Shown here: positions 1-45,885 of the stretch, piece by piece | Numbering within the stretch: position 1 is the stretch's first letter | Layout: every line of letters begins with the position of its first letter | Source of the DNA: a virus | Taxonomy: Duplodnaviria; Heunggongvirae; Uroviricota; Caudoviricetes | Virus record (IMG/VR): IMGVR_UViG_2667527975_000009 | Coordinates: 1 to 47,773 of that record | Length of the DNA: 47,773 nt | Direction: 5' to 3' (one strand) | Program-made: the position numbers and the translations under genes | Notes under the pieces: generated by a model | What the model saw: the letters and a program-made list of their open reading frames with translations, nothing else | The model's database searches: none | Told to the model about the DNA's origin: nothing

Positions 1-1158
1 ATGCTCACTGTTAAGCAGATTGAAGCAGCAAAGCCGAAAGAAAAACCATACCGCCTTCTCGATGGTAATGGCCTGTACCTTTATGTCCCTGTATCCGGGA
101 AAAAGGTATGGCAGCTTCGCTACAAGATTGACGGTAAGGAGAAAATCCTGACCGTAGGAAAATATCCGCTAATGACTTTGCAGGAGGCAAGGGATAAGGC
201 ATGGACTGCGAGGAAAGACATCTCGGTTGGCATCGATCCGGTAAAGGCGAAAAAGGCTTCGTCTAACAACAATTCCTTTAGTGCGATTTACAAGGAATGG
301 TACGAGCACAAGAAGCAAGTCTGGTCAGTAGGCTATGCAACTGAACTTGCCAAAATGTTTGATGACGACATTTTACCCATCATCGGCGGTCTTGAGATTC
401 AGGATATTGAGCCGATGCAACTGCTGGAAGTAATCCGCAGATTTGAAGATCGCGGCGCAATGGAGCGAGCCAACAAAGCACGCAGAAGATGCGGCGAGGT
501 TTTCCGTTACGCTATTGTCACTGGTAGGGCTAAATATAACCCGGCACCTGACCTTGCTGACGCCATGAAGGGATACCGCAAGAAGAACTTCCCGTTTCTC
601 CCAGCAGACCAGATCCCTGCATTCAACAAAGCACTGGCAACATTTTCAGGAAGCATCATATCGCTCATTGCGACCAAAGTTTTACGCTACACAGCCCTAA
701 GAACGAAAGAGCTTCGTTCTATGCTATGGAATAACGTCGATTTTGAAAACAGGATTATCACTATCGACGCCAGTGTGATGAAGGGACGCAAGATTCATGT
801 GGTCCCGATGTCGGACCAGGTGGTTGAACTTCTCACTACGTTAAGCTCCATCACCAAACCAGTATCAGAGTTTGTTTTTGCCGGGCGTAACGATAAGAAG
901 AAGCCAATCTGCGAGAACGCGGTATTACTTGTGATCAAACGAATCGGCTATGAGGGTCTGGAAAGCGGTCACGGATTCAGGCATGAATTCAGCACGATTA
1001 TGAACGAGCACGAATGGCCTGCTGACGCTATTGAAGTGCAACTGGCACATGCCAACGGCGGATCTGTGCGCGGAATTTACAACCATGCTCAGTATCTCGA
1101 TAAGCGCAGAGAAATGATGCAGTGGTGGGCGGACTGGTTAGATGATAAGGTGGAGTGA
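1..1158 (+). CDS. int: Tyrosine integrase, P4/IntS type
   Basis: 385-aa ORF whose ATG is the first base of the window. N-terminal KPKEKPYRLLDGNGLYL motif and C-terminal HGFRH...RGIYNHAQY catalytic box are typical of P4-family integrases. Confidence 0.9.
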   Translation: MLTVKQIEAAKPKEKPYRLLDGNGLYLYVPVSGKKVWQLRYKIDGKEKILTVGKYPLMTLQEARDKAWTARKDISVGIDPVKAKKASSNNNSFSAIYKEWYEHKKQVWSVGYATELAKMFDDDILPIIGGLEIQDIEPMQLLEVIRRFEDRGAMERANKARRRCGEVFRYAIVTGRAKYNPAPDLADAMKGYRKKNFPFLPADQIPAFNKALATFSGSIISLIATKVLRYTALRTKELRSMLWNNVDFENRIITIDASVMKGRKIHVVPMSDQVVELLTTLSSITKPVSEFVFAGRNDKKKPICENAVLLVIKRIGYEGLESGHGFRHEFSTIMNEHEWPADAIEVQLAHANGGSVRGIYNHAQYLDKRREMMQWWADWLDDKVE

Positions 1159-1184
1159 ACCATCTTAAAAATCAATGAAAACAT

Positions 1185-1216
1185 GCAAGGCCTGGCACTC
1201 AAGTTACAGGCCTTGC
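1185..1216. terminator. Hairpin between convergent int and tailspike genes
   Basis: 10-bp inverted repeat GCAAGGCCTG / CAGGCCTTGC with a 12-nt loop; a short U-run follows on the minus-strand side. Confidence 0.45.
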
Positions 1217-1266
1217 GCATACAATTTATCAACTAATAATTTAATTTTTTAAAATATCAATTAATT

Positions 1267-3441
1267 CTATCTAATCCTGAACATTACAATTGGAGCAGAG
1301 CCAGAAGATAAAGGGCCTGACCAATGGTATCTAATTCTGAAAGAAGACTCACTTGGAGTTCCGATAATTTCTATTGGACTTAAAGTTGCACCTTCTGCAG
1401 AACCAGCAGGTTGTCTAAACCCCAACACAGCAATCTGGTTTGGTGTTGGGGCATACAGAAAATTATGCTCAATATCAACCTCGTTAGATTCGCTACCTGT
1501 TGGGTTTGGCATATTCCACTCAATATAATCGTCAGTTGATTTCCCATTTATTGAGTTTCCAACTGTTGCCATAATCGTCCACGTACACGTCCTGTTAAGG
1601 GCTGCCATTCTATCACCTAAAAACCTATTATAACCATTTGCGCCTGAAGTGATTAATCTTATATTCTCTGATGCACATGTGCCAATGCTGTTAAATCCAG
1701 TGCAATCAGAAGAAAGCCCCTTCGCAGTTATATCTACGCTGTTCGCAAAACAAATTGTTGTTGAATTTACTGCATCGCGAATAAGAGCAGAACCCGAAAA
1801 CAAATTATCACACGAACCTCTTATATTATTACCACCGCCGGATAAGTAACATAAATTTCCTTTTATCCTCTTGGATGTAAAAGTAACATTGTTATTGTCA
1901 CCAGTAACAGAAAGAAGCGAGGCTTTAATAGGGGCATTGTCACTCTGTAACTGACCAATTTGGTTTATTGTAACTACATTGTTGTTGCCTGATATAGCTA
2001 TCTGATACCCATCATCATCAATTGAAGGTGAATATCTTTGTGCTTTTATATTGATGTTAAGTGTCCAGATTGTACCGTTATCCAGAAGCATGTCGCGGAG
2101 AGGAGAAATTGAATCGCCAGTGTAGTTATCTGGCATTCTTCCGCACGCCCTGGCTTCTGCGATGGCAACAACACCATGTGCCCCGTTGGTAAACCAGTAA
2201 CCACCTAAACTATTATCAACACACACATGCCTCGCATTGAATCGGTTAACACCCAGCGTCTTAAATCCATAGCCATAATACGCAGCATATACATGGATGT
2301 AATTTATATCGACATGTCCTGTATAAGGAGACTGATTATCAAGAACAATTCCATGACATGGTTCTCCGGGATAAAGAAGGCTTTGTTGGCTTGTTGCTGT
2401 TAATCTTGCGCTGTAAGGAGGAAGTCCACACAGGCCAAAAACAATATAATCCATGTTAATATCACCTGGCCCCCTGAACACAACCCCCTCTCTCCCTGAA
2501 ATTCTTCCCGTTATCCTCACTTCAGAGGCGTGTTCCTGATTATCATGAAATGATCCATACCCCTCTGAATAGAGAGCATGTTCTGCAACATTATTAATCT
2601 CAACGTCAATGTGGTACATGCTGCCGAATATTTTAATGGCAGTTCCATAGTCATTGTTAACAGTGTCGCAAGTTCTCCATGAGTTTGTATCTCTTTGCAA
2701 GTCAAGATAATTACCATCAATGGTCATATCTTTTATGCTAAATCCATATGGCGCATCAGACAGATTTTCCACAACGCCAAAGCCATGTGTTTTAAATACA
2801 TCTGTATTACTACCTTTTTTAACATACAGAAATGTTGCTCTCTTTCCAGAGCCTTTATGATGAACGCCTGTATAAAGAATGATAGGAGAATCTATTAAAT
2901 AAACACCTGGAGGGTAAAATATTTCCCCGCCACCATTATTAAAAGCAGCTAATGCTGCGGCATTAATGGCATCAGAATCTGATGTCAATCCATCTGCTTT
3001 AGCTCCATAGTATTGAGGTGTTTTCCTGATTGCATCGTAAACCGTTGAAGCGCCGAAACCGATATATTTACTACCATCTGTACCGCCAATAAGTAATTTA
3101 AACTGATCCGGGTCATACTTCAGCACATTCGGAAAATAGAACTGCTGTGTACCATACGCATCATAAACAGCCATAGAATGGCCTTGCACGGTTACGAATT
3201 TGGCAATCTGTCCGTTATATACCGGATATCCAGCAGCGTTAATGATTATTGGTTGCGAAACAGGAACGTGAGAACCGTCTTCATTCTCCACATAAACCTG
3301 AATCTGGTTTTCAGGATTTACTGGGTCAGTGTCAATTTTACCGATATAAATTTTGCCATTAGCTACGGCTTTAAAAGAGCGGGCCATAGTGAAGAGTTGC
3401 GAAGGCATGCTCACTACAACATTGGCTGTAATGTCTGTCAT
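1267..3441 (-). CDS. Tailspike (P22 gp9 / HK620-type head-binding domain with a divergent receptor-binding domain)
   Basis: 724 aa. The first ~115 aa ([46 protein letters not shown]...) match the conserved head-binding domain of P22-like tailspikes; the remainder is unrelated to the P22 or HK620 sequences I recall. The gene is visibly more AT-rich than its neighbours. Confidence 0.9.
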
Positions 3442-3499
3442 TTAATTTGCTCCAGATACAAGGAATGGCCGCAGTGATGCATTATTAACCAAAAAATAC

Positions 3500-3512
3500 G
3501 ACCACCGTGGTC
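3500..3512. promoter_or_regulatory. Mnt-operator-like palindrome
   Basis: GACCAC-C-GTGGTC, a 13-bp palindrome between the divergent mnt and tailspike starts; it resembles the P22 Omnt core as I recall it. Confidence 0.45.
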
Positions 3513-3576
3513 TTATTGAGGATGCAACCAGCAGATAATAAGATGCCGATCCACTCACAAGAGCGAGGCATCAAGA

Positions 3577-3828
3577 ATGGGAAGAGATGACCCGCAATTT
3601 AATCTGCGGCTACCTTACGAATTAAAGGAAAAACTAAAACAGCGAGCCAAATCCAATGGCCGCTCTCTTAATTCAGAATTAGTTCAGATAGTGACTGATG
3701 CTGTATCAAGGCCATCCAAAATTTCAGGCTATCGAGACGATGCGGAACGCATCGCTGATGAGCAATCAGAGCTTGTTAAGAAGATGGTGTTTGATACGCT
3801 GAAGGATTTGTACAAAAAACCCACCTGA
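3577..3828 (+). CDS. mnt: Mnt repressor (ribbon-helix-helix, Arc/MetJ family)
   Basis: 83 aa, MGRDDPQFNLRLPYELKEKLKQRAKSNGRSLNSELVQIV...DAERIADEQSELVKKMVFDTLKDLYKK; near-colinear with P22 Mnt. Confidence 0.85.
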   Translation: MGRDDPQFNLRLPYELKEKLKQRAKSNGRSLNSELVQIVTDAVSRPSKISGYRDDAERIADEQSELVKKMVFDTLKDLYKKPT

Positions 3829-3844
3829 AGGTGGGTCCTATTTA

Positions 3845-4264
3845 TTAGTCTTGCTTTGTTGATGGTATAAGTGATGCATTTGCCTCTTTTGGCTTCAAGG
3901 TATACATCCCACCATTAAATGGATCTACAGCAAGCCAACCAATTAACCCACCAAACACAAGGTTTCCACCAATATACCAACCATTAGCATTGGCTTTGAT
4001 TGGCAAGGTTACTGGCTCGTACCCATCCTTTTCCATAGTGATCTGATAGCTCTTTTTGCCAAAATAACTACCATCTGACTTGGCAAGAGTTACTCCTTGC
4101 GGGGTCTTACCTTGCGCAACAATCACGCCTGATTCGTCTTTTACCTTAAAGCTCGCACCGGAAGGATTGCTGTTCACTTGCACAAGCTGTGTTTCGTCAC
4201 CAACAATAGTTGCGCACCCAGATAACAATATAGCGCCAGCAACGACGCCGATAATCCTCTTCAT
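3845..4264 (-). CDS. Lipoprotein (moron; possible superinfection exclusion)
   Basis: 139 aa with an N-terminal signal peptide and lipobox (AILLSGC); sits between mnt and the ejection-protein genes. Confidence 0.6.
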   Translation of the reverse strand: MKRIIGVVAGAILLSGCATIVGDETQLVQVNSNPSGASFKVKDESGVIVAQGKTPQGVTLAKSDGSYFGKKSYQITMEKDGYEPVTLPIKANANGWYIGGNLVFGGLIGWLAVDPFNGGMYTLKPKEANASLIPSTKQD

Positions 4265-4398
4265 ATTACTTTCCGTTTTGTTAGAATCAGAAAGATCTTA
4301 ATAATAAAAAGTATTTTCGTGAAGATATTGTCGATTGAGTTAATAACTCATTTACACCCAACAGTGCCATGATGGCAAAGATAAGGAGAGTTAATCAT

Positions 4399-4884
4399 AT
4401 GAAAAAATCACTGTTAATTATCCCGCTTCTGCTGGCAGGGTGTGCAAAGGTTAGCGACTATCAGGCAAGTTGCGAACAACGCTATCCAAAGCTTAGCGAT
4501 ATGGCTAATTGCCTTGATGCTAGCGTGAAGAACGACTCACGCATGGCATCAGCACCAACACCTAAGTTATATGTCCTTGCTGCGAAGATGCTCGGGCAGG
4601 GTGTCGATGATGGCAAGATAAGTGACGCGCAGGCAAGACTTGAGCTTCAGAATCTTTATGTTCAATTACAAAGCCAAGAACAAGCCCAACAAATAGCGCA
4701 AAGCCAAGCATTCCAGCAGGCTTTATTGAATTATCAGGCTGTAAACACAATGCAAGCGATCGAGCAAAAAGCGAGACAGCCTGTTATAACTCAACCCTAT
4801 CCAACACGAGTTGACACTTACACAAACTGCAATTCAGGGTTTGGTAATACAGTCACATGCAACAGTAGCAGTAACATCAGATAA
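4399..4884 (+). CDS. Lipoprotein with Q-rich region (moron)
   Basis: Start taken at MKKSLLIIPLLLAGC (lipobox), with AAGGAG about 9 nt upstream; Q-rich central segment; opposite strand to the structural genes. Confidence 0.6.
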   Translation: MKKSLLIIPLLLAGCAKVSDYQASCEQRYPKLSDMANCLDASVKNDSRMASAPTPKLYVLAAKMLGQGVDDGKISDAQARLELQNLYVQLQSQEQAQQIAQSQAFQQALLNYQAVNTMQAIEQKARQPVITQPYPTRVDTYTNCNSGFGNTVTCNSSSNIR

Positions 4885-4974
4885 CAATCAGCAAAGGTAT
4901 CGCCTATGCAGAGGGATACGATAAACCTCGCGTTCTACATATTTGGTTTTTGCACGTTCCTGGTGTTTGCGAAG

Positions 4975-6972
4975 CTATTCTGACAGCGCATCAGACTTAG
5001 CACCCTGAGTCAGGGCGTTAATGACCTTTTGTGCCTGCTGCATGGCTTTCTCAAACGCTGTTGATCCGCGTGGGGTGTTTGCCATTCGGAGCATTGCATT
5101 CCTGAATGGCTCGCTCTCATAGGCGCGAGTAAGAAGTCCGTAGCTTACTGCTGCACCAGTTGTCGCCGGGTTCATTGCCGTCCCATACCCAATAATGAAC
5201 GGGATGGTTTGCTGCCCTGTGGGTGTTGTTACTGCCGCTTTTGCAGCCTGCTGCGTGGATTGCAGGTAGTTTTTCAATCCTTTCAGATAAGCGGCTTCCT
5301 GACCTTTAAATGTGATGCCAGTCTGGTTTTGCAGGATGTTAAGCTGTCGAAGGAACTGGTCAGGGGATCCGCCAGATTTCTCCATCGCCTTTCCAATGAT
5401 GCCATTGCGCATTTGCGCCCTGCCAACACGACCAACTGAGTTATACAGCGTCTTAATTTCCGATTTGTTCTTGCTGAATAGCATGTTGTTGACAACTTCC
5501 GGCGTCAGGTCGCCTTTCATGAGAACATTCTTCAGCCTGGTATTCTTTAGTTTCGCCGCTTCGTCAGCGTAGACGGCATTGGCCTGCTGATATTTACGGA
5601 GAGTATCGTTGCCAAGATTCTGACCAATGGCACCATTGATATCGTCAGTCATTGCCTTGTAAACGCGCTGAATAGCAGCATCGGAACGGTTTGGTAACAC
5701 TGGTCGCTCACCCTTCACGTCCATTCTGAACTGGCTGCGCAGGTCGCTTAATTGCTTCAAATCCAGATTTACCGGACCATCAGGGCCAGCATTGCGAACA
5801 AGCTCATCACGATATGACTGAAGTTTTGAAATTGTCTCGTTATCAGCTACCTTACCAAGCTTCTGCAGATTAGATATCTCAGTATCAATCTGCTGAATTG
5901 CTCGCGCAGGCTGGATATTGACTCCCGCCATTGCATTCTGAACCTGCTCAAGACGGTTCCCTGCGGCACGACGAATTCCTGATGTTTTCGCTTTAAGGCT
6001 GTCAATAACAACCGCTGGATCATACTCACCGAATTTATCGGCAAATCTCTGCACCAACTGGCTTCTCGCTTCCTGTTGCGTTGCTCTCATTCCGCTTGTG
6101 CCAGCCAGAGGGATATTTTCTGCTGTAGTCTGCGCCATTTTTCCGACGCGGGAAGTGGGTTGTAACAGGTCTGTGGTGTGCAGAGGAACTCCTTCACGCT
6201 CTGCAAATCTGATAGCCTGCTGCGCTTCTGGCGCAATAGCACCACTAACGCCACGATAAGCAGCACCTAATCCACGTCCAGCAGCGTTAATAGCGCCGCC
6301 TGCCAGAACGCCAACACCTAAATCGGTGGCGAGGGCTTCCGCATCATCTTTCGCACTATTTGCAGCAAGTGACCCGACTGCGTTTTCAGCGAGAAGGCGA
6401 GTTGCACCCTGAGCGATTCTACCAGCTAGTGTTGGTGCCTGTGCCGCCGCTCTCTCAACGCCAGCAGGAGTGAGGTAAGGCAATGCTTCAGCAAATACCC
6501 TTCCCTCTGTCGTTTGTGGAGTCAGCGCGCCTTGCTGAAGGCCAAAGTCCTGCTCTAATCCCTGCGTTGTTACTCGTGGCGCTGGTTGATATGTACCATC
6601 GCCAATGCCGAGTTTACCGCCAGCCCAAGCCGCCGCGCTTGTTACAGCATCGGCAACTGATGCGGGTATGTTTGCCACGTTCACGCCAGCCTGCACCAGT
6701 CCGCGACCAGTCTCTTTTACTGCTTCGCCAAGATCAGACATAAATCCACTTTGCTGTGGTTGTTGCTGTGCTACTGGTTGCTGTGTCTCCACTTGCTGCG
6801 CAGATGGCAATGGATAGGCAGCATAGAAAGCTTGCTTGGCCTGCTCTGCATTTTCTCCGGCTTGCGGGGCAACGACTTCATTGAAGTATTGCTCCTGAGC
6901 CTGCGCTTTTTGTTCTGGTGCTAACGCCTGATACTGTGGAGAGGCGATAACATCTTTCCATGCTTTAGCCAT
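4975..6972 (-). CDS. Ejection (internal virion) protein, P22 gp16-like
   Basis: 665 aa, last gene in the gp7-gp20-gp16 order; Ala/Gly/Gln-rich composition. Confidence 0.75.
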   Translation of the reverse strand: MAKAWKDVIASPQYQALAPEQKAQAQEQYFNEVVAPQAGENAEQAKQAFYAAYPLPSAQQVETQQPVAQQQPQQSGFMSDLGEAVKETGRGLVQAGVNVANIPASVADAVTSAAAWAGGKLGIGDGTYQPAPRVTTQGLEQDFGLQQGALTPQTTEGRVFAEALPYLTPAGVERAAAQAPTLAGRIAQGATRLLAENAVGSLAANSAKDDAEALATDLGVGVLAGGAINAAGRGLGAAYRGVSGAIAPEAQQAIRFAEREGVPLHTTDLLQPTSRVGKMAQTTAENIPLAGTSGMRATQQEARSQLVQRFADKFGEYDPAVVIDSLKAKTSGIRRAAGNRLEQVQNAMAGVNIQPARAIQQIDTEISNLQKLGKVADNETISKLQSYRDELVRNAGPDGPVNLDLKQLSDLRSQFRMDVKGERPVLPNRSDAAIQRVYKAMTDDINGAIGQNLGNDTLRKYQQANAVYADEAAKLKNTRLKNVLMKGDLTPEVVNNMLFSKNKSEIKTLYNSVGRVGRAQMRNGIIGKAMEKSGGSPDQFLRQLNILQNQTGITFKGQEAAYLKGLKNYLQSTQQAAKAAVTTPTGQQTIPFIIGYGTAMNPATTGAAVSYGLLTRAYESEPFRNAMLRMANTPRGSTAFEKAMQQAQKVINALTQGAKSDALSE

Positions 6973-8267
6973 TAATCACCCCATAGTGAAGAAAAGTTAC
7001 TGCCAGTAGTAGATTGTTGCCCTGGCATATTCTGCACCGGCTCCTGATAATCAAACTGTTTTTTAACAGTGCTCAACTTGCTTTCAAGCTGATTTCTAAT
7101 CTTTCCGATAGAGTCACGAAAAGCCTTTTCACTCATTTTGGGACTTAGGGCACCAACCGCATCGGATAATTTTTTACCCTCAGCATCTGAAAGAGCGCCC
7201 ATACCCTTCAGGGACTGCACCATAGGAAGGAATGTTTGAGCTTTAAAGGTGTCGAGTCTTGCTTCAAAGTTAGCCGCATCAGATCCAGGAACTGTCGGAA
7301 ACGCTGAGCGAATGCCTACTGCTTTTGAAAGGCCGGGGCTTTGCTCTATCTCGTTGAGAGAATCAAGCGCAGTGCTGAACGTATCAACTGCACCCTGAGC
7401 GGCGGCCTGCCTGTCAGCGCGGGCTATGTCAGCCTTTTGCCTAACATCTGCCTGTTTCTGTTTTAGCTCTTCAAGCTTTAACTGATTGCTTTCTCTGGCT
7501 ATCTGTCTATCCAGAGCCTTCTCCTGTAATTCTGCTCTTTGTATTTCGCGGGAAAGAGCGGCATTCTGTGCGCTGATGTTCTGTCCACGTATCTGGATGT
7601 CCTGACCACGCGCTGTTAGTGCTTCTCCAGCCTGATTGCTGCGGATTGTCTCTGCCAGTCTGCCTCGGTCAATCTCACGACCAGCCATCTTGTCCTGAAC
7701 ATTGAAGTAGTCAATCGGACCGAGAGCAGCCATCCCAAGGTGATCAACAAACTCACCAAATCCTGAAGGGTTCTGCTGATACATCTGAGCAACGCTGTTA
7801 GGGTCAACACCGACGCGAGTCAGTTCCTTGGCGTTGTTTTGCAGCCATGATTGCATTGCTTCTGGAGACGATGACGCAAGGCGGGCGCCAGCCGCTAAGG
7901 TTCCGATAGAATTGCGCTGGTCTTCATCAATGAATCCCATGCCTTTACGAACGGATTCAATCTGGTCTGGATATTGAGTAGCCAACTGACGCAAAGCACC
8001 GCGATCACCAGACGCATAAGCATTAGCGTATGCCTGCTGAAATTCTTTCTGCCGCTGAGCCTGCTTTTCCTGCTGAAACACCCCCGCAATACCTGAAAGG
8101 CCTTGCAAAGCAGTCAGCCCAACATTGTTAGCGCCTGAACGCTCAATATCATTGTTCTGCCTAATAAGTTGAAGCGTATTGCCGATGTCATTTACGCTCG
8201 GAGCGTTTGAGTTGACGCCGCCGATACCAGCCAACAATCCGCCATTTGATCCTTGCCAAGTAGCCAT
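6972..8267 (-). CDS. Ejection protein, P22 gp20-like
   Basis: 431 aa, synteny between the gp7-like and gp16-like genes; coiled-coil-rich. Confidence 0.75.
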   Translation of the reverse strand: MATWQGSNGGLLAGIGGVNSNAPSVNDIGNTLQLIRQNNDIERSGANNVGLTALQGLSGIAGVFQQEKQAQRQKEFQQAYANAYASGDRGALRQLATQYPDQIESVRKGMGFIDEDQRNSIGTLAAGARLASSSPEAMQSWLQNNAKELTRVGVDPNSVAQMYQQNPSGFGEFVDHLGMAALGPIDYFNVQDKMAGREIDRGRLAETIRSNQAGEALTARGQDIQIRGQNISAQNAALSREIQRAELQEKALDRQIARESNQLKLEELKQKQADVRQKADIARADRQAAAQGAVDTFSTALDSLNEIEQSPGLSKAVGIRSAFPTVPGSDAANFEARLDTFKAQTFLPMVQSLKGMGALSDAEGKKLSDAVGALSPKMSEKAFRDSIGKIRNQLESKLSTVKKQFDYQEPVQNMPGQQSTTGSNFSSLWGD

Positions 8268-35798: not shown

Positions 35799-36437
35799 AT
35801 GAGCAAGATTGACTATCAGGCACTGCGTGAAGCGGCAGAGAAAGCAACGTGTGGTGTGTGGTCGCTCGAATATGGAGAGGGCCGATTTGATGGTGATGAT
35901 GCACTAATTCATCGCGAGGCTGCTGGATATATTCCCATTTGCAGAATTGAAGGAGCGCATCCTGAAAGCGGTTTCGATGAAGATTTCCAAATAGAACAGC
36001 AGGCCAATGCTGAATTCATCGCCGCAGCCAATCCAGCTACCGTCTTGGCGCTGCTGGGCGAGCTGGAAACAGCAAAAAAGCGCATAGCAGAACTGGAAGC
36101 CGAACCTGTAAGCCAAACTTGCAAGTTGAACGAGCCATCGGGCAACTCTCCGGTAATTCCGGATGGTTGGATAAGCTGTAGTGAGCAGATGCCTGTAATC
36201 GGCGAGCTAAATTGGAGAACTAGTTTTCCTTTACTGGTTACGTGTGAGATCGGCGTTATACCTGCTTATTACGGCTTTGTGAGCGTTAATGGTGATAGAC
36301 ATTATGGCTTTATGGAGAGTCTTAAATACGGAGACGATAACGGCAACCATCCTCAAACTAATGAATATGGTCTGATTAGCAATGTCACACACTGGATGCC
36401 TCTACCAGAACCGCCTCAGGAGGTTAACCGTGGCTAA
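35799..36437 (+). CDS. Ead/Ea22-like protein (DUF551-type C-terminus)
   Basis: 212 aa with a C-terminal THWMPLPEPP motif. Confidence 0.65.
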   Translation: MSKIDYQALREAAEKATCGVWSLEYGEGRFDGDDALIHREAAGYIPICRIEGAHPESGFDEDFQIEQQANAEFIAAANPATVLALLGELETAKKRIAELEAEPVSQTCKLNEPSGNSPVIPDGWISCSEQMPVIGELNWRTSFPLLVTCEIGVIPAYYGFVSVNGDRHYGFMESLKYGDDNGNHPQTNEYGLISNVTHWMPLPEPPQEVNRG

Positions 36438-36714
36438 TCTGCAACTTGCCGTTAAAGGTGAATACTTCGATGCCATGATTCGCGGGGAGAAAACGGAAGA
36501 GTATCGCTTGTGTAATAACTACTGGAATAAGCGAATTATGTTCCGGGAGTATGACCGCCTGATTATCACGAAGGGATATCCGAAGCGCGACGATTCCAGC
36601 CGAAGAATTGACGTCCCGTATGACGGATATGAAATCAAGACAATCACACATCCGCACTTCGGTGATAAACCGGTAAAGGTGTTCGCGATAAAAGTGAATA
36701 TCGGCAATGAATAA
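36430..36714 (+). CDS. ASCH-domain protein
   Basis: GTG start after GGAGG; motif KGEYFDAMIRGEKTEEYR. Confidence 0.5.
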   Translation: MANLQLAVKGEYFDAMIRGEKTEEYRLCNNYWNKRIMFREYDRLIITKGYPKRDDSSRRIDVPYDGYEIKTITHPHFGDKPVKVFAIKVNIGNE

Positions 36715-36773
36715 CAATCCTCGCACTCGCGGGGATTTCTTTTATCTGAACTCGCTACGGCGAGTTTTGTTTT

Positions 36774-37085
36774 ATGGAGATGATTATGGCCTGTTCAACA
36801 TTCAACCCTCTAACGTTACAGAAATACCAGCCAAACCCTGAAGATTTATGCTCACTGCGTGGCGGAAATCATGGTAAATCCGCCATGATCGAATGTAAGG
36901 ACAAAATCCACATTTGCCTTAATTGCGTTGATGTCCTCGTTGATATCAAAAATGAGAGAGAAGATAAAAAGCGTAGCGAGGCTGTTCGCGCCTTAGATTC
37001 ATGGATGCGGGATGGATATAGTGCCGCGCAAATTTATGACTTAGCAATATCAAAAGGTGAAATACCAGGAGTGCGTATCGAATAA
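36774..37085 (+). CDS. Hypothetical protein (last gene of the early-left operon)
   Basis: 103-aa ORF followed by a strong terminator. Confidence 0.5.
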   Translation: MEMIMACSTFNPLTLQKYQPNPEDLCSLRGGNHGKSAMIECKDKIHICLNCVDVLVDIKNEREDKKRSEAVRALDSWMRDGYSAAQIYDLAISKGEIPGVRIE

Positions 37086-37127
37086 GACGTAACCAATATT
37101 CGAATTGAAGAACTGAAAGAACACCAA

Positions 37128-37642: not shown

Positions 37643-38818
37643 ATGCTGCTATCTGACATCCAAATAAAAAGAGCAAAACCGAAGGACAAACCCTATACGC
37701 TTAACGATGGTATGGGGCTATCACTCCTGATCGACACAGCGGGCAGTAAAGGCTGGCGTTTTCGCTATCGCTTTGCAGGTAAGCCTAAGATGATTTCCTT
37801 TGGCGTATATGGCGATGTGTCGTTGGCACAGGCACGTACCAAACGTGATGAAGCGCGTTCGATGTTAGCCAACGGGATAAACCCAAGTGAAGCCAGAAAA
37901 GCAGATAAGATTGCTTTGCAGTTCGCGCATGAGAACAGCTTTGAGTCTGTGGCCAGAGAATGGCACTCATCGAAAAAAGCCACCTGGTCAGAGGGTTATG
38001 CAAAAGAGGTTCTCAATTGTATGGAAAAGGATATTTTTCCTTTTATCGGCCAGCGCCCAATTGAGCAGATTGAACCATTAGAACTGCTAACCGTCCTGCA
38101 AAAAATAGAGAAAAGAGGTGCGCTAGAGCAAACCAGTAAGATCCGCCGCCGCTGTGGTGAAGTGCTTCGTTATGCTGTTGCCACTGGTAGAGCAAAGTAT
38201 AATTTTGCACCCGATTTAGCTATCGCACTCAACAAACCTAAAACCCAACACTTCCCGTTCCTGACTGAAAGCGAGTTGCCCGAGTTCGTTAATGCTCTGG
38301 ATAACTATCAGGGCAGTTTAGTTACCAAATACGCCACGCAGCTGTTGATGCTAACAGGCGTGCGAACAATTGAACTACGTGCAGCGGAATGGGCTGAGTT
38401 TGATTTAGATAATGCCTTATGGGAGATCCCCAAAGAACGGATGAAGAAACGCCGCCCCCATCTGGTTCCGTTATCAACTCAGGCGATCAATATCCTGAAA
38501 AAGCTGCAAGAAATAACAGGGAATTACAGCCTCGTTTTCCCTGGCCGGAATGACGTCAGTAAACCAATGAGCGAAGCCAGCATCAACAAAGTGATAAAAC
38601 TACTGGGTTATCACGGTCGGTTAACGGGTCACGGTTTCAGGCATACCATGAGCACCATCTTGCATGAGCATGGGTTTGAAAGTGCCTGGATTGAAATGCA
38701 GCTTGCGCATGTTGATAAGAACTCTATTCGAGGTACTTACAATCATGCGCAATATATTAAAGATCGACAAGTAATGATGGAATGGTACGCTAGCTTATTA
38801 AATACGACCTGCTATTAA
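37643..38818 (+). CDS. int: Tyrosine integrase, P4 type (second integrase)
   Basis: Start taken at the internal Met (MLLSDIQIKRAKPKDKPYTLNDGMGL...); homologous to but clearly distinct from the integrase at 1..1158. Confidence 0.9.
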   Translation: MLLSDIQIKRAKPKDKPYTLNDGMGLSLLIDTAGSKGWRFRYRFAGKPKMISFGVYGDVSLAQARTKRDEARSMLANGINPSEARKADKIALQFAHENSFESVAREWHSSKKATWSEGYAKEVLNCMEKDIFPFIGQRPIEQIEPLELLTVLQKIEKRGALEQTSKIRRRCGEVLRYAVATGRAKYNFAPDLAIALNKPKTQHFPFLTESELPEFVNALDNYQGSLVTKYATQLLMLTGVRTIELRAAEWAEFDLDNALWEIPKERMKKRRPHLVPLSTQAINILKKLQEITGNYSLVFPGRNDVSKPMSEASINKVIKLLGYHGRLTGHGFRHTMSTILHEHGFESAWIEMQLAHVDKNSIRGTYNHAQYIKDRQVMMEWYASLLNTTCY

Positions 38819-39748
38819 ATCCAGCATGAAACAAATATGGTGAGTAATTTGATACTGTTTGTTTTTTGGCAACCCAGGGAAATGCCTTACAGTTGGTTGA
38901 CTATTGTAATAATAATAGTTAAGACCAATGTTGCTGCCAAACTGGGTTGGATGTTGGGGAACAAGATTTGTAATTTGATCTGAAACATCTAAAAATTTTG
39001 CAGTAACATTTGAACTTCCTCGTTGCGTGTTGCTTGATACAAAATGACGAATCCAAACTGTATTCGCTTGTAAATTCTTGAACACCAAATGTGCGGCAAC
39101 AGCAGAAGGTTGACCACCTCCAAGATCTAGTACCTGGCCAGTAATTGTATAATCGCCAAATCCTAAGTAATTTTGTCCCACGAATTGATGTGCGTGCGTG
39201 AAAAGTTCCGGCCCATTATAATCAGCATTTTTTGCTAACTTTCTAAAGTTATCGCTAATAATAATTAACTTCGACAAAGGAAGAAGAGCGCACTGATTAG
39301 GAAGCATTTTATTATTTAAAACAACATGATAACTAATCAATTGATTTGTCGCCAACAACTGAATATCAGAGTTGGATAATGATGGATTATCATATAGAAG
39401 TGCAACTCGTCTATTTAAGTTAGCATTCAACCAATTATTAATATCATTAATCGTTGTATTGGGCTGAATAAGATATCCAGAGATGATATTATTTTTATTT
39501 GTTAATACACTTGATAAATTTTGATTTAAAGTTAAGACGTTATTGTGTGAAGAAAAATCTTCCTGATAAGGATTAAGGATAACAATTATGTCAGAATTCC
39601 AAACATTTAAACATGTTAATAAATTTCTCGTATTGACGTTAATTGGTTCTAAAATTGGTAGCAGACCATTTAGGCTAACTCCCTTCGCAACGAGGTCCCT
39701 AAGGCATAATAACTCTGTACTTCTCGCATACAAATATGGGCTATACAT
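38798..39748 (-). CDS. Cargo protein B (unknown function; AT-rich accessory gene)
   Basis: 316 aa, Asn/Leu/Ser-rich, low GC; second gene of a two-gene operon, and its 3' end overlaps the 3' end of int by 21 bp. Confidence 0.7.
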   Translation of the reverse strand: MYSPYLYARSTELLCLRDLVAKGVSLNGLLPILEPINVNTRNLLTCLNVWNSDIIVILNPYQEDFSSHNNVLTLNQNLSSVLTNKNNIISGYLIQPNTTINDINNWLNANLNRRVALLYDNPSLSNSDIQLLATNQLISYHVVLNNKMLPNQCALLPLSKLIIISDNFRKLAKNADYNGPELFTHAHQFVGQNYLGFGDYTITGQVLDLGGGQPSAVAAHLVFKNLQANTVWIRHFVSSNTQRGSSNVTAKFLDVSDQITNLVPQHPTQFGSNIGLNYYYYNSQPTVRHFPGLPKNKQYQITHHICFMLDLIAGRI

Positions 39749-39769
39749 AACTTACAACTCCTGAGGATA

Positions 39770-40651
39770 TCAACAAATTTTAATTTTTACATCCATCAAA
39801 TTCATGATGAATTCTTTTTGCTTTCTTGATAATGGTGTTGCATAACCTAAAACACGTAAACATGCTGGAAGAGAATAAATATAATCCAAAAAAACTTTAT
39901 CGTTACATCTTTTTTTCATAGCAGAGATAAAGTATTTATTTGCTATGTTTAATGGCATCTGCATGAATATCTCTTTACAATATTCATAAACCAATCCGTT
40001 AGGCATATTTATTTTAGTTGAAGTGTAATCTTCTATTATAGCTAAGAACTCTTCCTTTCTAAGAACTGAAAACAAGCTGTCACTTTTAATATAATCAATA
40101 TTTGAATCTGCCTCCTTAATGACACTCAATTGATCTTTTTTATTCAAAACCATAACTCCCACTCTGGGGAGATTTAAAGCACAATATTTACTTGCATACT
40201 CTGGATGTGTAACTATATACACTTTATCAAAAACATCCAAATAATCAGGGGCTTGAGTAATCAACCTTTTTGGTGAATCATACTCTGTCTTAATCTCGTA
40301 AGCTGTAGACGTACCATTAAACACCGCAACATCCACTATAGAGTTTTTAATTGGTAACTCTATGGACGACGAACTTGTTTTTGGGCTGTGCTTACCGAAT
40401 ATTATTTTATTGACAAGTGCTGTCTTATAAACATATTCATTTCTATAATTCAGACGCAAAAAATCATATAATGATGTAAATAAATCCCTTAGTGAAATCT
40501 CATGTTCATTATTATCATTGTTTGAAAACAGTGTTTCATAGCAGTAAGAATCAAAACTCCCAAATAAATCCGAAATATCCTTACCTTTTGCTAAGGATGA
40601 AAAAATGGGGCGACGGAAAAATTTAGCATATTCCTTTTTATTATGACTCAT
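39770..40651 (-). CDS. Cargo protein A (unknown function; possible PD-(D/E)xK nuclease-like motif)
   Basis: 293 aa, AT-rich; contains ...SIVDVAVFNGTSTAYEIKTEYD..., which resembles a D...E-x-K nuclease core. Confidence 0.7.
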   Translation of the reverse strand: MSHNKKEYAKFFRRPIFSSLAKGKDISDLFGSFDSYCYETLFSNNDNNEHEISLRDLFTSLYDFLRLNYRNEYVYKTALVNKIIFGKHSPKTSSSSIELPIKNSIVDVAVFNGTSTAYEIKTEYDSPKRLITQAPDYLDVFDKVYIVTHPEYASKYCALNLPRVGVMVLNKKDQLSVIKEADSNIDYIKSDSLFSVLRKEEFLAIIEDYTSTKINMPNGLVYEYCKEIFMQMPLNIANKYFISAMKKRCNDKVFLDYIYSLPACLRVLGYATPLSRKQKEFIMNLMDVKIKIC

Positions 40652-41332
40652 TACTCATACTCTATAAACATCATGCAATTTGATAAGTTATGACGAATTC
40701 TCACCATCCAGTTACTACCTGTATACATACTAATCAAAAAAAACGAGTACGCAAGATACGAAAGTACTTTTCTTGTTCACCAGTTAGCTTACCTTGATCC
40801 TCACCAGCGACTGGAAGATAGGTAGCAGTATATGTGGAAACCTTCCCCTAGCTAGGTCTACAAACGTAGTTTGGGCATTTAGGCTCCACGATTCACGGTT
40901 TGACACGGCCTGATATCTGCACATTCGTTTTGATATGCAGCAATCGTGAAAAAGGAAAATATACGCTCGACAGACCAAAACGGCACTACACCGCACCCGC
41001 CTGCGGTTTTCATATCACTAAAAATTTTCAGCCTGGATTTTTTACAAACGATACCGCCAGTCCGTGCCAGTCCTCGAGATGTACTGCGATACAGGAACTG
41101 AAAAGAATGAAAAGAAATTCATTTTTTTTCAGTTTTACTGTCCGTCGAATCTATGGCCTGAATACGCAACTCTATGATATTAAATGGATAATTAATTTTA
41201 GGTGTGTGATTTTATGAAGGTTTGTGAAACATGAAGAAGATAACCAGTTGAAAAATAATAATTTTATGACCGTATAAACTGAAATCCTGTGTTCAGGTTC
41301 CGGGAACAGATCGGCCATTCCCGACGCATACT

Positions 41333-41605
41333 TTACCCATTCTTTTGCGCAGCCAGCAGCAACTTTAAAGCCTTTTCCCGTTCCTCGGGTGGAATTGCAT
41401 CAATCAGCTCTTTAACCCTTCCCTGCCCGTTCAGCGCGCTTGGACTAACGGAATGGGAGAAAGCAACATTCATCACAAACGAGTGACCGCACTCCACATT
41501 AGAGCAATAGCAGTACACATCGTACAGTTGTGGGTGTTTCCTGTTTGTTTTACCTATCCGTGCTACTGCCTGACATGTGGGGCAGTACATTCTCATCATC
41601 TTCAT
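41333..41605 (-). CDS. Ogr/Delta-family zinc-finger transcriptional activator
   Basis: 90 aa with C-x2-C...C-x4-C (MYCPTCQAVARIG...CYCSNVECGHSF). Confidence 0.8.
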   Translation of the reverse strand: MKMMRMYCPTCQAVARIGKTNRKHPQLYDVYCYCSNVECGHSFVMNVAFSHSVSPSALNGQGRVKELIDAIPPEEREKALKLLLAAQKNG

Positions 41606-41679
41606 CGTTCTGTGCCCTATACTGTTGCCCGCCAGAAGAAGGGATTTGGATCCCTACCTCTTGTTCTGAACGTGTAACA

Positions 41680-41862
41680 CTGGTAACACGTGTAACGCTA
41701 TTGATTTAAAAGGATTTAATCTGTTACCAGTTAGCAAAATCAAGAGGTAACGCGTGGTAACACACCATTTTTTGTTACCTCTGTTACCAGTCAGTATTTT
41801 TGACTGGTAACACTGAAGAACCGCATCAGTAACGGGTGTTACCTCTGTTACCAGTGTTACCT
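41680..41862. repeat. Iteron array (TGTTACC / GGTAACA, at least 10 copies in both orientations); putative satellite ori
   Basis: Visible directly, for example CTGTTACCAG four times, GGTAACAC and GTGTTACCTC, immediately downstream of the primase gene. Confidence 0.65.
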
Positions 41863-41887
41863 CATAAAAATAAGACTCACGCGATAA

Positions 41888-44575
41888 TCACTCAGGTTCA
41901 GCGCTTCCCAGTACCTGTGTATTGAACTGGTACACACGTTTAAGCCCTATTTCTGGCAGGCGAATGCTGTTTTGCGTCCGGCCATCTTCACCGGGTTTCA
42001 GCCAGCCCGCGTCCACACACAACCTGGCCACCTTACGCGAGTCAAATCCCTTACAGATCTCCTTCCAGCCTGACGGGAGAACGTAGAACGTCACAACCGG
42101 CTCTGTCACGTTGTCTCCTTTATCGACTTTTCTGAATCCCATCATTGAAACAGGCCGGTTCCTGTCGTCATTCCAGTCAGCAAACCGACTGAACTGATTA
42201 CGCGTCATGAAGTCCCGAACCTGTTCAAGTGCCGCTTTATCTTCCTGATTAGCTGTATGGCCCCGGTCAGCCATCCATGCAGCCAGACAGCTTTGAGCGG
42301 CACGAAAGGCCTCTCCCTCCGGCCATCCTGTGATGCCCGCTTTTGTGGCCAGCTCCCCGGCCATCGCAACCAGAGCAAAACGGGTAACAGCCCGGCCAAC
42401 CTGATTCCCGGCATTTTCCGGCGTCAGCCTTCGGGTATACTCTTTCAATAAGGCTTTCGCCTGACTGGTCAGTTCCGGCAGATCAGCGGTCAGGCAATAC
42501 AGCCAGTCGCGGAATGGTGCACCATGATAATGCGCTACGTGCTGCTCAAGATGCTCAGCCAGGGTTTTCCCGCTACTGAAGCCATGAAGTTCTTCAAACA
42601 CGCCATACTTGCCCGAATCGCTTGGGATCTGGATCATTCTGACCTCAACCCCGGCATACGTACGTTCCCCGGCGCTTGCCGCATGCTCTACCAGTGACAG
42701 TTCCCCGGTAGACAGAAACAACAGATTCCAGCGGTTGGTTTCCCTTACCGAACCATCTGTTCTGGCTCTGGCTTTGCCCTGCCCGTTAGCCAGCATATAA
42801 GCGATATTTCCCGCCTCCCTGCCGTCAACCTCCCGGATTTCATCCAGCATCAGCGTGGCATCATTGCGGCGGCTCGCCGTTCCTTCTAAGGCATTCCCCG
42901 TCGCCCGCCACGTATGCCAGAAATCTGTTCCACCACATACTGATGCAGCCACTTTCATCGTCGTGGTTTTACCGTCTGTGGATTCCCCTTTGAGGTGATA
43001 ACCTCCACCGCCGATACCAACCAGTTTCAGAAGGGGGGCAGCAAATGCCAGACTCACCGCAAAGGCAAGACGGGCATTCTTTATGCAATAACGGCCTATA
43101 TTTTCACGCCAGCCCTCTGATGTGCCGCTGACACGAAAATCACGCCCCTGCACACTCGATGTTTGTAAGATGACTGACTGGGCTTCGCGCCCTATCACTT
43201 CATCCTGGAGAACGTAAACCCCGCCGTGCCAGCCAGTTTTATTCACACAGGTTACTTTTCTGTCCGGTTTACACAGCGAGATATATTCCATCAGGAATGC
43301 TCTGGCCATGCCGTTAATGTTGATGTAAGAAAGCCCGTTAACCAGCAGAACGCGGCGCAGTTCTTCCCCGCTACCGCCCAGCATCTCCATCGGCATTGCC
43401 CATTTACGGCTGTTTCCGTTGGTATCTTCCCATTCCAGCAAACGCCCGTAATTACTTCCATCAGCATCACTGGTGATTGCCGTCACCCGCAACGGACTGC
43501 AAATTTTGATATTACGTATCTCTGTATCACCATCAGACTTATTAACCAGCTTGTCGTACCACAAATATTCTTTTGTCAGCCGGAACCCTTCTGGTAAACG
43601 GGTCTGCCCTTTGCCATGCAGCGTCATTTCTTCACGAAAGGCATCTCTCGCCCGTTCTTTCCCCACTTCCTGCCGATAATCATCCCAGTCAGCCTTATGG
43701 CGTACCGGAGGGAGCGTTACCCAGCCATCCACCGCTTTGGCGGCTTTCTCTGCCTGAATACGCCCGGTGTTTTCTTTGCCGTCAGCCAGATCATTATCTC
43801 CGGCCAGAATGATCCGGGTTTCCGGCCAGCGTTTTCGGATCTGCTCCGTCACCTTCAGTAAATTGGTGGCAGCGACAGCCGCCACGATCCATCCTTCAGT
43901 CAGCAGACTGACGGTAAGCGCCGTGGCAAAACCCTCAGTGATAATCACCTGTTCAGGTGTTTCAGCGGGTATATCGGTCAGGGCAATGAATGCGCCAGAC
44001 AGCTGGCTACCGGGCAGCAGACTTTTATCCCCGTCAGGATTGATAAGCTGGCCACCAGTAATATTCCCGGAAATATCCGTCAAAGGCAGCAGTAATGAAC
44101 CGGTGGAAAATGTTATTCCGGCCAGATTCAAAGGCTGTGACAGCAAGGGAAGTGAATACCCGTGTAAGCTCTTATTTGTCAGATAGACCGGCTCACCATT
44201 GCAGGACTGCTGTCTGAGTCTGGTATATCGCTCCGCGCCCGCTTCTTTTCCTGCGGCCTTTTTCCTGGCTGGCAATGCGGGCTTCTCCTGTATTTCTGGT
44301 AATGCAAGCGCCTCAGATACCATCCCGGCGACTTCTTTTATCTTTCTTCCTGTCACCAGACGAACCAGATCAAGACCATCGCCATGACCGCACTGATTAC
44401 AAAACCACGTCCCTCGCCCCGCTTTATCGTCCAGTCGAAAACGATCTTTTCCACCACAGGCAGGGCAAGCCCCATGATGTCCTGCGGACGGTACTTTAAT
44501 ACCTAATGCTGACAGGATATAAGGCCAGCGCCCAATTGCAGCTCCGGAAATCGTGGATACAGACGGTGTTTTCAC
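41888..44575 (-). CDS. Primase-helicase (P4 alpha-like)
   Basis: 895 aa with an N-terminal Zn-ribbon (CPACGGKDRF...CNQCGHGDG), a TOPRIM-like region (IITEGFATAL...AGDNDLADG) and Walker A motif GESTDGKTT. Confidence 0.9.
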   Translation of the reverse strand: MKTPSVSTISGAAIGRWPYILSALGIKVPSAGHHGACPACGGKDRFRLDDKAGRGTWFCNQCGHGDGLDLVRLVTGRKIKEVAGMVSEALALPEIQEKPALPARKKAAGKEAGAERYTRLRQQSCNGEPVYLTNKSLHGYSLPLLSQPLNLAGITFSTGSLLLPLTDISGNITGGQLINPDGDKSLLPGSQLSGAFIALTDIPAETPEQVIITEGFATALTVSLLTEGWIVAAVAATNLLKVTEQIRKRWPETRIILAGDNDLADGKENTGRIQAEKAAKAVDGWVTLPPVRHKADWDDYRQEVGKERARDAFREEMTLHGKGQTRLPEGFRLTKEYLWYDKLVNKSDGDTEIRNIKICSPLRVTAITSDADGSNYGRLLEWEDTNGNSRKWAMPMEMLGGSGEELRRVLLVNGLSYININGMARAFLMEYISLCKPDRKVTCVNKTGWHGGVYVLQDEVIGREAQSVILQTSSVQGRDFRVSGTSEGWRENIGRYCIKNARLAFAVSLAFAAPLLKLVGIGGGGYHLKGESTDGKTTTMKVAASVCGGTDFWHTWRATGNALEGTASRRNDATLMLDEIREVDGREAGNIAYMLANGQGKARARTDGSVRETNRWNLLFLSTGELSLVEHAASAGERTYAGVEVRMIQIPSDSGKYGVFEELHGFSSGKTLAEHLEQHVAHYHGAPFRDWLYCLTADLPELTSQAKALLKEYTRRLTPENAGNQVGRAVTRFALVAMAGELATKAGITGWPEGEAFRAAQSCLAAWMADRGHTANQEDKAALEQVRDFMTRNQFSRFADWNDDRNRPVSMMGFRKVDKGDNVTEPVVTFYVLPSGWKEICKGFDSRKVARLCVDAGWLKPGEDGRTQNSIRLPEIGLKRVYQFNTQVLGSAEPE

Positions 44576-44982
44576 AGCAGCACCTCCTGACCTTCCGGCT
44601 TCACAAATTCAAAACCTTCGGGTAGTTCGCCATCAGGTGCTCCGAAAATAATATCCCGGTAAACCTCACGCATCTCTGTGACACCAAAAACTGACAGGCG
44701 AATATTTTCTGACATAAAGCCTGGTTTAAGCATTTTTTCCAGTTTCTCTGCGGCCAGTATGCAACCAGCATCAGCCCCAAACTCATTCACCCACGGCATT
44801 TCAATATGGTAAATAATATTACTCACCACTTTTTCGTGGGAGAGTTCTATTCGTTCGCCATCTTCAATATAAACAGGTTCATTATGAACACGCACCATTA
44901 AGGAAATGAATGCATCAGCAATGTAGTAGCGTAAGACTGCTGTTCGTAAAGCATGCGCCTTTAAATTTTGATTATTATTCAT
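44572..44982 (-). CDS. Hypothetical protein (primase operon)
   Basis: 136-aa ORF overlapping the primase start by 4 nt. Confidence 0.55.
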   Translation of the reverse strand: MNNNQNLKAHALRTAVLRYYIADAFISLMVRVHNEPVYIEDGERIELSHEKVVSNIIYHIEMPWVNEFGADAGCILAAEKLEKMLKPGFMSENIRLSVFGVTEMREVYRDIIFGAPDGELPEGFEFVKPEGQEVLL

Positions 44983-45211
44983 CGCGCATCACTCCCTTAA
45001 TTGTGCTGGTTTCCTTAACAACGCCATCCAGTTGTTCGGCAATACAGGCCACTAAAGCCGCAGCGCCTTCCGCTGAAACAGTTCTCGCTCCATTCACTGT
45101 GGGCACGGACAAGACCTCTGCAAGAAACTCACTGGCCAGTGCCGCCCGTAACAGACGACTCTCCCCCTGTTCACTCAATATGCAGCCTTGCTTAAAATTC
45201 ATGGATTTCAT
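44975..45211 (-). CDS. Hypothetical protein (primase operon)
   Basis: 78-aa ORF, coupled. Confidence 0.5.
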   Translation of the reverse strand: MKSMNFKQGCILSEQGESRLLRAALASEFLAEVLSVPTVNGARTVSAEGAAALVACIAEQLDGVVKETSTIKGVMRDE

Positions 45212-45411
45212 GCAACCACCTCCCCGGCTCTTTTCACAGGGATACGGGCAGCAAAGCTCAGGATAAATTCAGTGGCAAGTTTAAGGCGTGCAGCATGCTC
45301 GCATTCTGCGATTACACGCACAGGGCGTGGACGGGCATCACGGTCTGTACGGCGGACAGCCAGAAAGACAAAGGTAAATTCAGGGTGAGATAAAGCAGGG
45401 ACTGTAGCCAT
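45208..45411 (-). CDS. Hypothetical protein (first gene of the primase operon)
   Basis: About 67 aa from MATVPALSHPEF with GAAGGAGG 8 nt upstream; the longer 196-aa ORF upstream is low-complexity. Confidence 0.45.
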   Translation of the reverse strand: MATVPALSHPEFTFVFLAVRRTDRDARPRPVRVIAECEHAARLKLATEFILSFAARIPVKRAGEVVA

Positions 45412-45630
45412 AATGGCAACCTCCTTCAGATAGCGGGTAACGCTACCACCGGAGTTCCTACGCTCATGGGTGGTAGCCCAGACGGGGGTAGGAATACCGG
45501 CTCTGAAGGATACCGGCCAGCCCGAAAGCTGCCCCGCCTGGACTACCATAATTCTGATGATGTGGCGTAAAAAATAAAAAAATACAATCAGCCACCACAC
45601 CATAAATTTTAGGTGAGTCAAAGCTGCGAC

Positions 45631-45875: not shown

Positions 45876-45885
45876 TGTCGCTAAG

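Follow-up and report, generated by a model that had tools for sequence, protein, structure and literature searches.

An exchanged tailspike receptor-binding domain of a P22-like prophage found in the KL112 capsule cluster of Escherichia coli ST131

Among the closest described systems, the tailspikes of Sf6 and HK620 are an endorhamnosidase and an endo-N-acetylglucosaminidase that target the Shigella Y-type and O18A1 O-antigens, respectively, and most characterized Lederbergvirus tailspikes likewise target O-antigens (PMC11990801, PMC10408124). Phage CurroJimenez (Bas106) strictly requires O16, whereas CUS-3, whose tailspike is an endosialidase, provides a precedent for a Lederbergvirus using a group-2 capsule and not the O-antigen as receptor (PMC11990801). 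Here, we analyzed the tailspike gene of a prophage carried by a 47,773-nucleotide stretch of DNA (IMG/VR virus record IMGVR_UViG_2667527975_000009, hereafter the window). According to its anchor domain, its genomic position and its predicted fold, this tailspike belongs to the P22-like class (gene 9/gp14). It is almost certainly modular, i.e. made of a P22-like head-binding domain and of an exchanged receptor-binding domain, and the latter was found in a single cluster of sequence type 131 (ST131) of Escherichia coli, one that is defined by the capsule locus KL112.

As an earlier note made from the sequence alone had recognized, the gene begins with a head-binding domain of the P22/HK620 type. 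Pfam PF09008 (Head_binding) matches amino acids (aa) 1-113 over its full length (E = 3.9e-67, 224 bits for a cutoff of 24), and aa 1-114 share ~93% identity (hand count from the printed alignment) with Sf6 gp14 (PDB 7sg7). The PDB alignments to P22-type tailspikes end around aa 116, that of Sf6 gp14 extending weakly to aa 216. At the DNA level, megablast against phage genomes retrieved 30 records that match only nucleotides (nt) 1-341 of the gene, including HK620, Sf6, CUS-3, IME10 and the BASEL phages CurroJimenez, Huey, Dewey and Louie. Because BLAST homology to IME10 and CurroJimenez stops at window positions 3101-3103 and resumes only at ~1153-1170, within the 3′ end of the integrase gene, the exchanged cassette delimited by these comparisons is ~1.93 kb long (window ~1171-3100) and comprises the receptor-binding part and a 108-bp spacer.

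Beyond the anchor, the resemblance to the described tailspikes is limited to their general plan. The Sf6 (gp14; 7sg7, 2vbk) and HK620 proteins share with the present one the head-binding domain, the P22-like gene position and the succession of anchor, neck, beta-helix and C-terminal beta domain, but their receptor parts are only 10-14% identical to it in structural alignments and their catalytic residues could not be mapped onto it; neither the P22 gp9-type endorhamnosidase domain (PF09251) nor homology to the catalytic parts of P22, Sf6 and HK620 was found. CUS-3 is a phage of the same type with 94% identical head-binding DNA, but no CUS-3 or endosialidase match was obtained in the sequence or structure searches with the receptor part; furthermore, its capsule specificity is known, whereas the one proposed below comes from host genomics. 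In the case of the O16-targeting CurroJimenez, BLASTP similarity stops around aa 188 and hhalign aligns 110 columns that correspond to the beta-helix cap only. An assignment to the published O16-specific subtype or to other E. coli serogroup subtypes was also considered and rejected, since PMC10408124 and PMC11990801 include no O25 subtype and there is no homology to the one O16-dependent spike that was compared, that of CurroJimenez. The receptor domain is outside the receptor-domain families of P22, Sf6, HK620, CUS-3 and the O16-type spikes. No characterized tailspike was nearly identical to the present one over its full length: identical or near-identical copies were retrieved only from 10 E. 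coli genomes, where they are annotated as "phage tailspike protein" and unstudied, and the tailspikes of E. coli CAVp367 and isolate 30224_1#201 (NZ_OZ039045.1) are 100% identical.

The AlphaFold2 monomer model of the exchanged domain, built on 20 homologues, predicts with good confidence (predicted local distance difference test, pLDDT, 89.8; predicted template modeling score, pTM, 0.85; pLDDT <50 for residues 1-22 of the model) a long right-handed beta-helix, to which a small C-terminal domain of all-beta structure is appended, in keeping with the beta-helix envisaged in the earlier note. Foldseek ranked the Sf6 tailspike first in the PDB, with 13% identity, and none of the solved structures searched by fold exceeded 17% identity, which bears out the initial claim that the remainder of the protein is unrelated to the characterized receptor-binding domains. 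One of these structures, the A-module of the mannuronan C-5 epimerase AlgE4 (2pyg; 16% identity), comes from a non-phage enzyme that is an epimerase and not a depolymerase, and its likeness may reflect only a generic beta-helix scaffold. PF12708 (Pect-lyase_RHGA_epim) was detected at aa 145-258 (42.4 bits for a cutoff of 27), and the domain belongs to the beta-helix superfamily that is pectate-lyase-like and related to glycoside hydrolase family 28 (GH28). Past the head-binding domain, the Pfam scan gave nothing else than a sub-threshold match to PF21300, and in NCBIfam the only match, to a rhamnogalacturonidase, was far below threshold. When 50 homologues, with identities down to ~28%, were aligned with MAFFT, the most conserved polar residues (conservation of at least 0.88) were E293, R313, E318, R323, D327, D368, H383, Y385, R400 and H405. 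They are placed by the model on successive rungs of the beta-helix and likely line an active-site groove. Of the catalytic motifs of GH28 (NTD, DD, GHG and RIK), an NTD is partly conserved at aa 212-214 (D214, 0.84), but the most conserved residues do not reproduce the GH28 pattern.

The family of this domain is of modest size (35 cluster representatives at E <1e-30). Its closest relative in an isolated phage is the product of gene 49 of Vectrevirus vB_EcoP_R4596 (QBQ76612.1), which gave the only whole-domain match among predicted viral structures (TM-score 0.84; 28-30% identity, 28% in this structural match). This protein has another anchor and occupies the second tailspike slot of a K1-5/SP6-like phage; it is uncharacterized, so that the search for a characterized relative advocated in the earlier note did yield a phage relative but not an activity. 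R4596 forms plaques on one of 64 test strains, and the paper that describes it names no receptor (PMC6563267). A much closer relative is the Uetakevirus-type tailspike WP_074158656.1 of the KL112-positive ST131 strain NR379, whose beta-helix core is 94.5% identical in nucleotides and 87% in amino acids. However, it differs by an epsilon15/phiV10/T7-gp17-like anchor of ~180 aa, by its prophage and integration site (near yfgI) and by its last ~47 aa, beyond window position 1409 where DNA homology stops. Other relatives with different N-termini are found in Atlantibacter (73% identity) and Pseudomonas putida (~50%), and further homologues carry the core behind PF18668 or PF03906. The occurrence of one core behind several anchors is direct evidence of modular exchange.

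The earlier note had also pointed to the AT-richness of the gene. Indeed, the receptor-binding part has a GC content of 40.3% (30.3% at third codon positions) compared to 50.2% for the structural genes, 48.0% for the integrase gene and 47.3% for the whole window. However, the head-binding part (42.3%) and the adjacent region at 3.4-4.9 kb (~42-44%) are AT-rich too, so that a low GC content extends beyond the swapped part.

The distribution of the domain was then established in 5426 complete E. coli genomes by using chimeric queries that associate the domain and a marker. It is present in 11 of them, as ten P22-type genes (98-100% identical) and one Uetakevirus-type gene (that of NR379). All 11 carriers were assigned to the KL112 cluster of ST131, a monophyletic group of clade C that includes 152 of 3033 ST131 genomes (10.64898/2025.12.15.689991). 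This assignment relies on the locus itself (n = 6), on IS1 deletion scars (n = 3) or on sister relationships (n = 2: 875 and GN04171, apparent close relatives of Ecol_276 and AR_0058 according to matching tailspike alleles and, for 875, also to gene position). KL112 in clonal complex 131 (CC131) has a most recent common ancestor dated to ~1994 and underwent five later events of fragmentation or loss; KL112-positive genomes also occur in CC73 (PMC13171598). None of the other genomes of the collection that carry the O25 wzx gene has the domain.

The capsule locus of CAVp367 (extract 3339600-3354894) is an atypical group-2 locus. It displays the order kpsFEDUCS, kpsMT (in the same orientation) and region 2, the latter consisting of a gene for a 1103-aa protein and a CatB-like O-acetyltransferase gene; an IS1 adjoins glcB and the gsp genes are gone. 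This arrangement is exactly that of KL112 as published for the ST131 clade C cluster, whose rearranged kps genes are still transcribed according to the cited preprint (10.64898/2025.12.15.689991). [quoted passage not shown] It fits the group of large open reading frames (ORFs) assigned to ribofuranose (Ribf)-Kdo capsules (PMC13171606), and PMC12887879 is also consistent with this assignment. The KL112 capsule is thus predicted to be an O-acetylated Ribf-Kdo polymer of the K13/K20/K23 kind.

Region 2 of KL112 was found in 31 of the 5426 genomes and in six of the 11 domain carriers (CAVp367, MNCRE44, EC32, OZ040950, EC20 and NR379). The kps locus is KL112 in the six carriers (6/6) where it is recognizable, one being an O16 strain, although they all belong to one clonal cluster where descent confounds this comparison. 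Among the five carriers devoid of region 2, the three that were inspected all harbor IS1-mediated kps deletions: AR_0058 and OZ039045 have kept the IS1 directly beside glcB and lack gsp, as KL112 strains do, and in Ecol_276 the deletion, marked by an IS1B scar, is larger and has taken glc as well. By contrast, the KL112 locus is fully intact, with identical scars, in MNCRE44 and EC32, which indicates that lysogeny occurs in hosts having an intact capsule locus. Four apparently different IS1 lesions of the KL112 locus were observed among the ten P22-type lysogens (in CAVp367, Ecol_276, AR_0058 and OZ039045): kpsT::IS1, a loss of kps that runs through the Ag43 region, the disappearance of kps along with the entire pheV island, and a still larger deletion through glc. 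The host of the window itself has no kps locus. The chromosome of CAVp367 also carries an inversion of ~1.5 Mb whose breakpoints (1.845-1.890 Mb and 3.339-3.392 Mb) fall within the genomic islands of pheV and leuX. This inversion puts kps far from pheV and is absent from OZ039045, whose tailspike is identical.

The O-antigen loci of the carriers are less uniform. O25 wzx is present in nine of the ten P22-type carriers (EC20 being counted by inference, its wzx lying on a separate record), whereas the tenth, EC32 (NZ_CP085619.1), has a complete O16 locus. The O-antigen region of EC32 shows 97.7% identity, compared to three single-nucleotide polymorphisms in 17.8 kb elsewhere, and its KL112 locus shares with those of the clade C strains the IS1B-glcB junction, an IS110 remnant and an AbiEii pseudogene. 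Since its KL112 locus is intact with identical scars, EC32 is a member of the cluster with an exchanged O-antigen region, and this looks like an O25b-to-O16 switch inside the KL112 cluster. In NR379 (NZ_AP040229.1), a deletion of the O25b locus (extract 7635-8003) has removed a part of rfbB, then rfbD, rfbA, rfbC and wzx (rmlD-A-C-wzx) and a part of the next glycosyltransferase gene, so that this strain is predicted to be O-antigen-negative while keeping KL112. The O-antigen is constant within ST131 clade C and, from the evidence gathered here, KL112 is what sets the carrier cluster apart. It was also observed that the poly-G tract of the O25b wzy gene counts eight residues in CAVp367 (frameshift; extract 36059-37120) and nine in NR379 (open frame; extract 4690-5752), the NCBI annotation pipeline (PGAP) marking both genes as frameshifted; this difference could reflect phase variation or a phage-resistance mutation but equally a homopolymer sequencing error, and it was not used as a mark of phage resistance.

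Since the domain is confined to one young ST131 sublineage, its target is probably the unusual capsule of this sublineage rather than the O-antigen. From this host distribution, the capsule appears no less likely than the O-antigen to be the receptor, and we give about an even chance to the precise proposal that the KL112 capsule is the receptor and the domain a KL112 capsule depolymerase. In the virion, the conserved N-terminal head-binding domain would anchor six trimers to the tail hub, and the exchanged C-terminal beta-helix would bind and cleave a surface polysaccharide, so that the phage is brought to the outer membrane, the site of action of the ejection proteins and of the tail needle. 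The KL112 capsule would most likely be the substrate and would be depolymerized by the groove of acidic, His, Tyr and Arg residues (E293, E318, D327, D368, H383, Y385, R400 and H405). The phage would then be a functional analogue of the K1-specific P22-like CUS-3.

The following points weigh against the capsule as receptor: (i) at least seven of the 11 carriers, including the host of the window, now lack a functional kps locus (eight if a putative truncation of the O-acetyltransferase gene of OZ040950 is counted), as would fit an O-antigen phage of unmasked cells; (ii) the association of the domain with region 2 (Fisher, p = 9e-12 in the 5426 genomes and p = 2e-5 in 461 O25-like genomes), which by itself speaks for the capsule, is confounded by descent, all the carriers belonging to one clonal cluster, so that these values overstate independence; (iii) the domain is mildly acidic (isoelectric point 5.7) and shows no sign of a polyanion-binding surface, isoelectric point and net charge having been found uninformative to discriminate a binder of acidic capsule from a binder of neutral O-antigen; and (iv) the closest homologues outside the genus of E. 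coli are those of P. putida and Atlantibacter.

The first of these points leads to the main alternative, in which the domain would hydrolyze the O-antigen with specificity for O25b, the KL112 cluster being exposed to it as its capsule is weak or often lost. Besides the kps lesions and the O25 wzx of most carriers, it is consistent with the usual targets of Lederbergvirus tailspikes and with the top Foldseek match, the Sf6 endorhamnosidase tailspike. Even the O16 carrier could be accommodated since O25b and O16 share the trisaccharide alpha-Glc-(1-3)-alpha-L-Rha2Ac-(1-3)-GlcNAc (PMC8260533), a segment that the domain might recognize. However, ~450 of the 5426 genomes carry O25 wzx and are devoid of the domain, whereas the lytic O25b-specific phage LM33_P1 reportedly covers ~70% of such strains (as cited secondarily in PMC11670814). 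Together with the KL112/O16 combination of EC32, this argues that the O-antigen is not the discriminating factor. Moreover, MNCRE44 and EC32 are lysogens with an intact KL112 locus, NR379 carries a related domain despite its rmlD-A-C-wzx deletion, the O16-dependent spike of CurroJimenez is not homologous past the beta-helix cap, and the ORF list includes no O-antigen-modifying gene (gtr or oac) beside the tailspike gene. We consider an O25b hydrolase, although the main alternative, as rather unlikely. Thus, of the two claims that the earlier note combined, modular exchange is corroborated by the sharp junctions, the other anchors and the other backbones, but the O-antigen as target is not secured, given the numerous O25 genomes without the domain, the O16 carrier and the restriction of all the carriers to the KL112 cluster.

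It could also be argued that the host restriction is uninformative, because it would result from a single ancestral lysogenization in the KL112 cluster followed by vertical inheritance and later recombination, the receptor being some other glycan or a non-enzymatic target. The grouping of all the carriers in one young monophyletic cluster (10.64898/2025.12.15.689991) and the location of ten of the 11 copies at argW are in line with this scenario. However, up to 0.5% difference is seen between alleles of the domain in a cluster that is ~30 years old (PMC13171598), and the domain is carried by at least three or four phage backbones. The EC32 prophage has 3% divergent structural genes and other terminase and needle genes than the prophage of the window, whereas the domains are 99.6% identical; the 87% identical version of NR379 belongs to another phage type at another site; and the sequencing run SRR24919012 (Logan) contains a 99% identical tailspike gene in a P22-like prophage at the bio locus, in a host whose lineage is unconfirmed (best matches of the bio-uvrB flank 99.7-99.9% identical). 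By our estimate, this diversity is beyond what the cluster could have generated in situ. Taken together, these observations indicate instead that phages bearing the domain entered the cluster repeatedly from an outside pool, and a single lysogenization is in our opinion improbable. Degradation of colanic acid or of another widely shared exopolysaccharide, suggested by the label "tail spike protein with colonic acid degradation activity" of the best PHROG match (phrog_8280; E = 1.5e-110), is most improbable, as the expected broad host distribution contrasts with 11 carriers in one ST131 cluster, the solved colanidase Phi92 gp150 is not a specific relative, and the label is unreliable since the same PHROG also covers the non-homologous O16-dependent spike of CurroJimenez. 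This label spreads into GenBank annotations, for example that of CurroJimenez (extract 2505-4499).

Returning to the KL112 capsule as receptor, a broader proposal can be made, but only tentatively: the domain would be the first sequence-defined depolymerase of a Ribf-Kdo group-2 capsule (KL112), the corresponding phage pool would repeatedly lysogenize the sublineage, and the use of the capsule as receptor would select its frequent losses by IS1. Our search of the literature retrieved no description of this domain nor of any ST131- or O25-specific tailspike of this kind. As tailspike domain swapping is textbook knowledge, the architecture alone is ordinary. The value of the domain lies in its specificity, i.e. 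a receptor module confined to a recent multidrug-resistant ST131 sublineage that includes isolates of the Klebsiella pneumoniae carbapenemase (KPC) era such as MNCRE44 and Ecol_276. If it is a KL112 depolymerase, it would provide (i) a reagent, also usable as a probe, to type a K antigen for which there is no antiserum, (ii) a module to retarget phages or tailocins at this sublineage, and (iii) a testable connection of the depolymerases borne by prophages with the capsule losses that recur in this clade. If its target is instead O25b/O16, the domain would become an enzyme candidate to attack the dominant O-antigen of extraintestinal pathogenic E. coli.

Table 1. Coordinates in the window of the tailspike gene, of its predicted parts and of the adjacent features.
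Feature	Position	Strand	Description	Basis
Tailspike gene	1267..3441	-	724 aa plus stop; identical to WP_053062320.1, "phage tailspike protein"	ORF list
Head-binding (virion anchor) domain	3100..3441	-	aa 1-114	Pfam PF09008; PDB matches 7sg7, 2vky, 8tvr; megablast
Linker/neck	2983..3099	-	aa 115-153; P22-type version only	Low-confidence model; absent from NR379 homologue
Right-handed parallel beta-helix core, predicted receptor-binding/depolymerase domain	1409..2982	-	aa 154-677	
Candidate active-site rungs	2227..2565	-	Most conserved residues of 50 homologues	MAFFT alignment
C-terminal all-beta domain	1270..1596	-	~aa 616-724	Model secondary structure and alignment
Intergenic spacer	1159..1266		Separates the convergent stop codons of the integrase and tailspike genes (108 bp); inside the exchanged cassette	ORF list
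IntS-type integrase gene	1..1158	+	Prophage end next to tRNA-Arg (argW)	Annotation of the identical CAVp367 locus

The element that carries the tailspike gene is a temperate P22-like podovirus (Lederbergvirus) prophage integrated at tRNA-Arg (argW), which is also the integration site of the CUS-3 prophage. The first 23.4 kb of the window are 99.97% identical to the CAVp367 prophage, and 100% identity to 30224_1#201, which is probably the source of the window or a sister of this source, was found for the tailspike gene and for the right end. The virion module includes, according to the annotation of the CAVp367 prophage, terminase, portal, scaffold, coat, gp4, gp10, tail needle and ejection proteins, and the structural region is ~96% identical in nucleotides to phage IME10. 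The tailspike gene is the last late gene, located after an Arc-type repressor gene and before the IntS integrase gene and att end. The Arc-family repressor gene (3577-3828, + strand) lies between the tailspike and DNA-ejection genes, in the vicinity of two genes for small predicted lipoproteins (3845-4264, - strand, signal end LLSGC; 4369-4884, + strand, LLAGC). The genes of this 3577-4884 region have no DNA homology to IME10 at that position and could be superinfection-exclusion or moron genes.

At the other end of the prophage, a 16-bp att-like repeat (CTGCAGGGGACACCAT) is located at 37468, by the torI/xis genes. Directly past this repeat, a P4-like satellite is integrated in tandem (37643-47773). 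It carries genes for an integrase, an sce7725/sce7726 pair (~38798-40651), which is possibly a defense cargo, an ogr/delta protein, a DUF927 primase, an Icd-like gene and a gene annotated as "P2 family major capsid protein". In 421 complete E. coli genomes, 80% or more of this 10.5-kb stretch is found.

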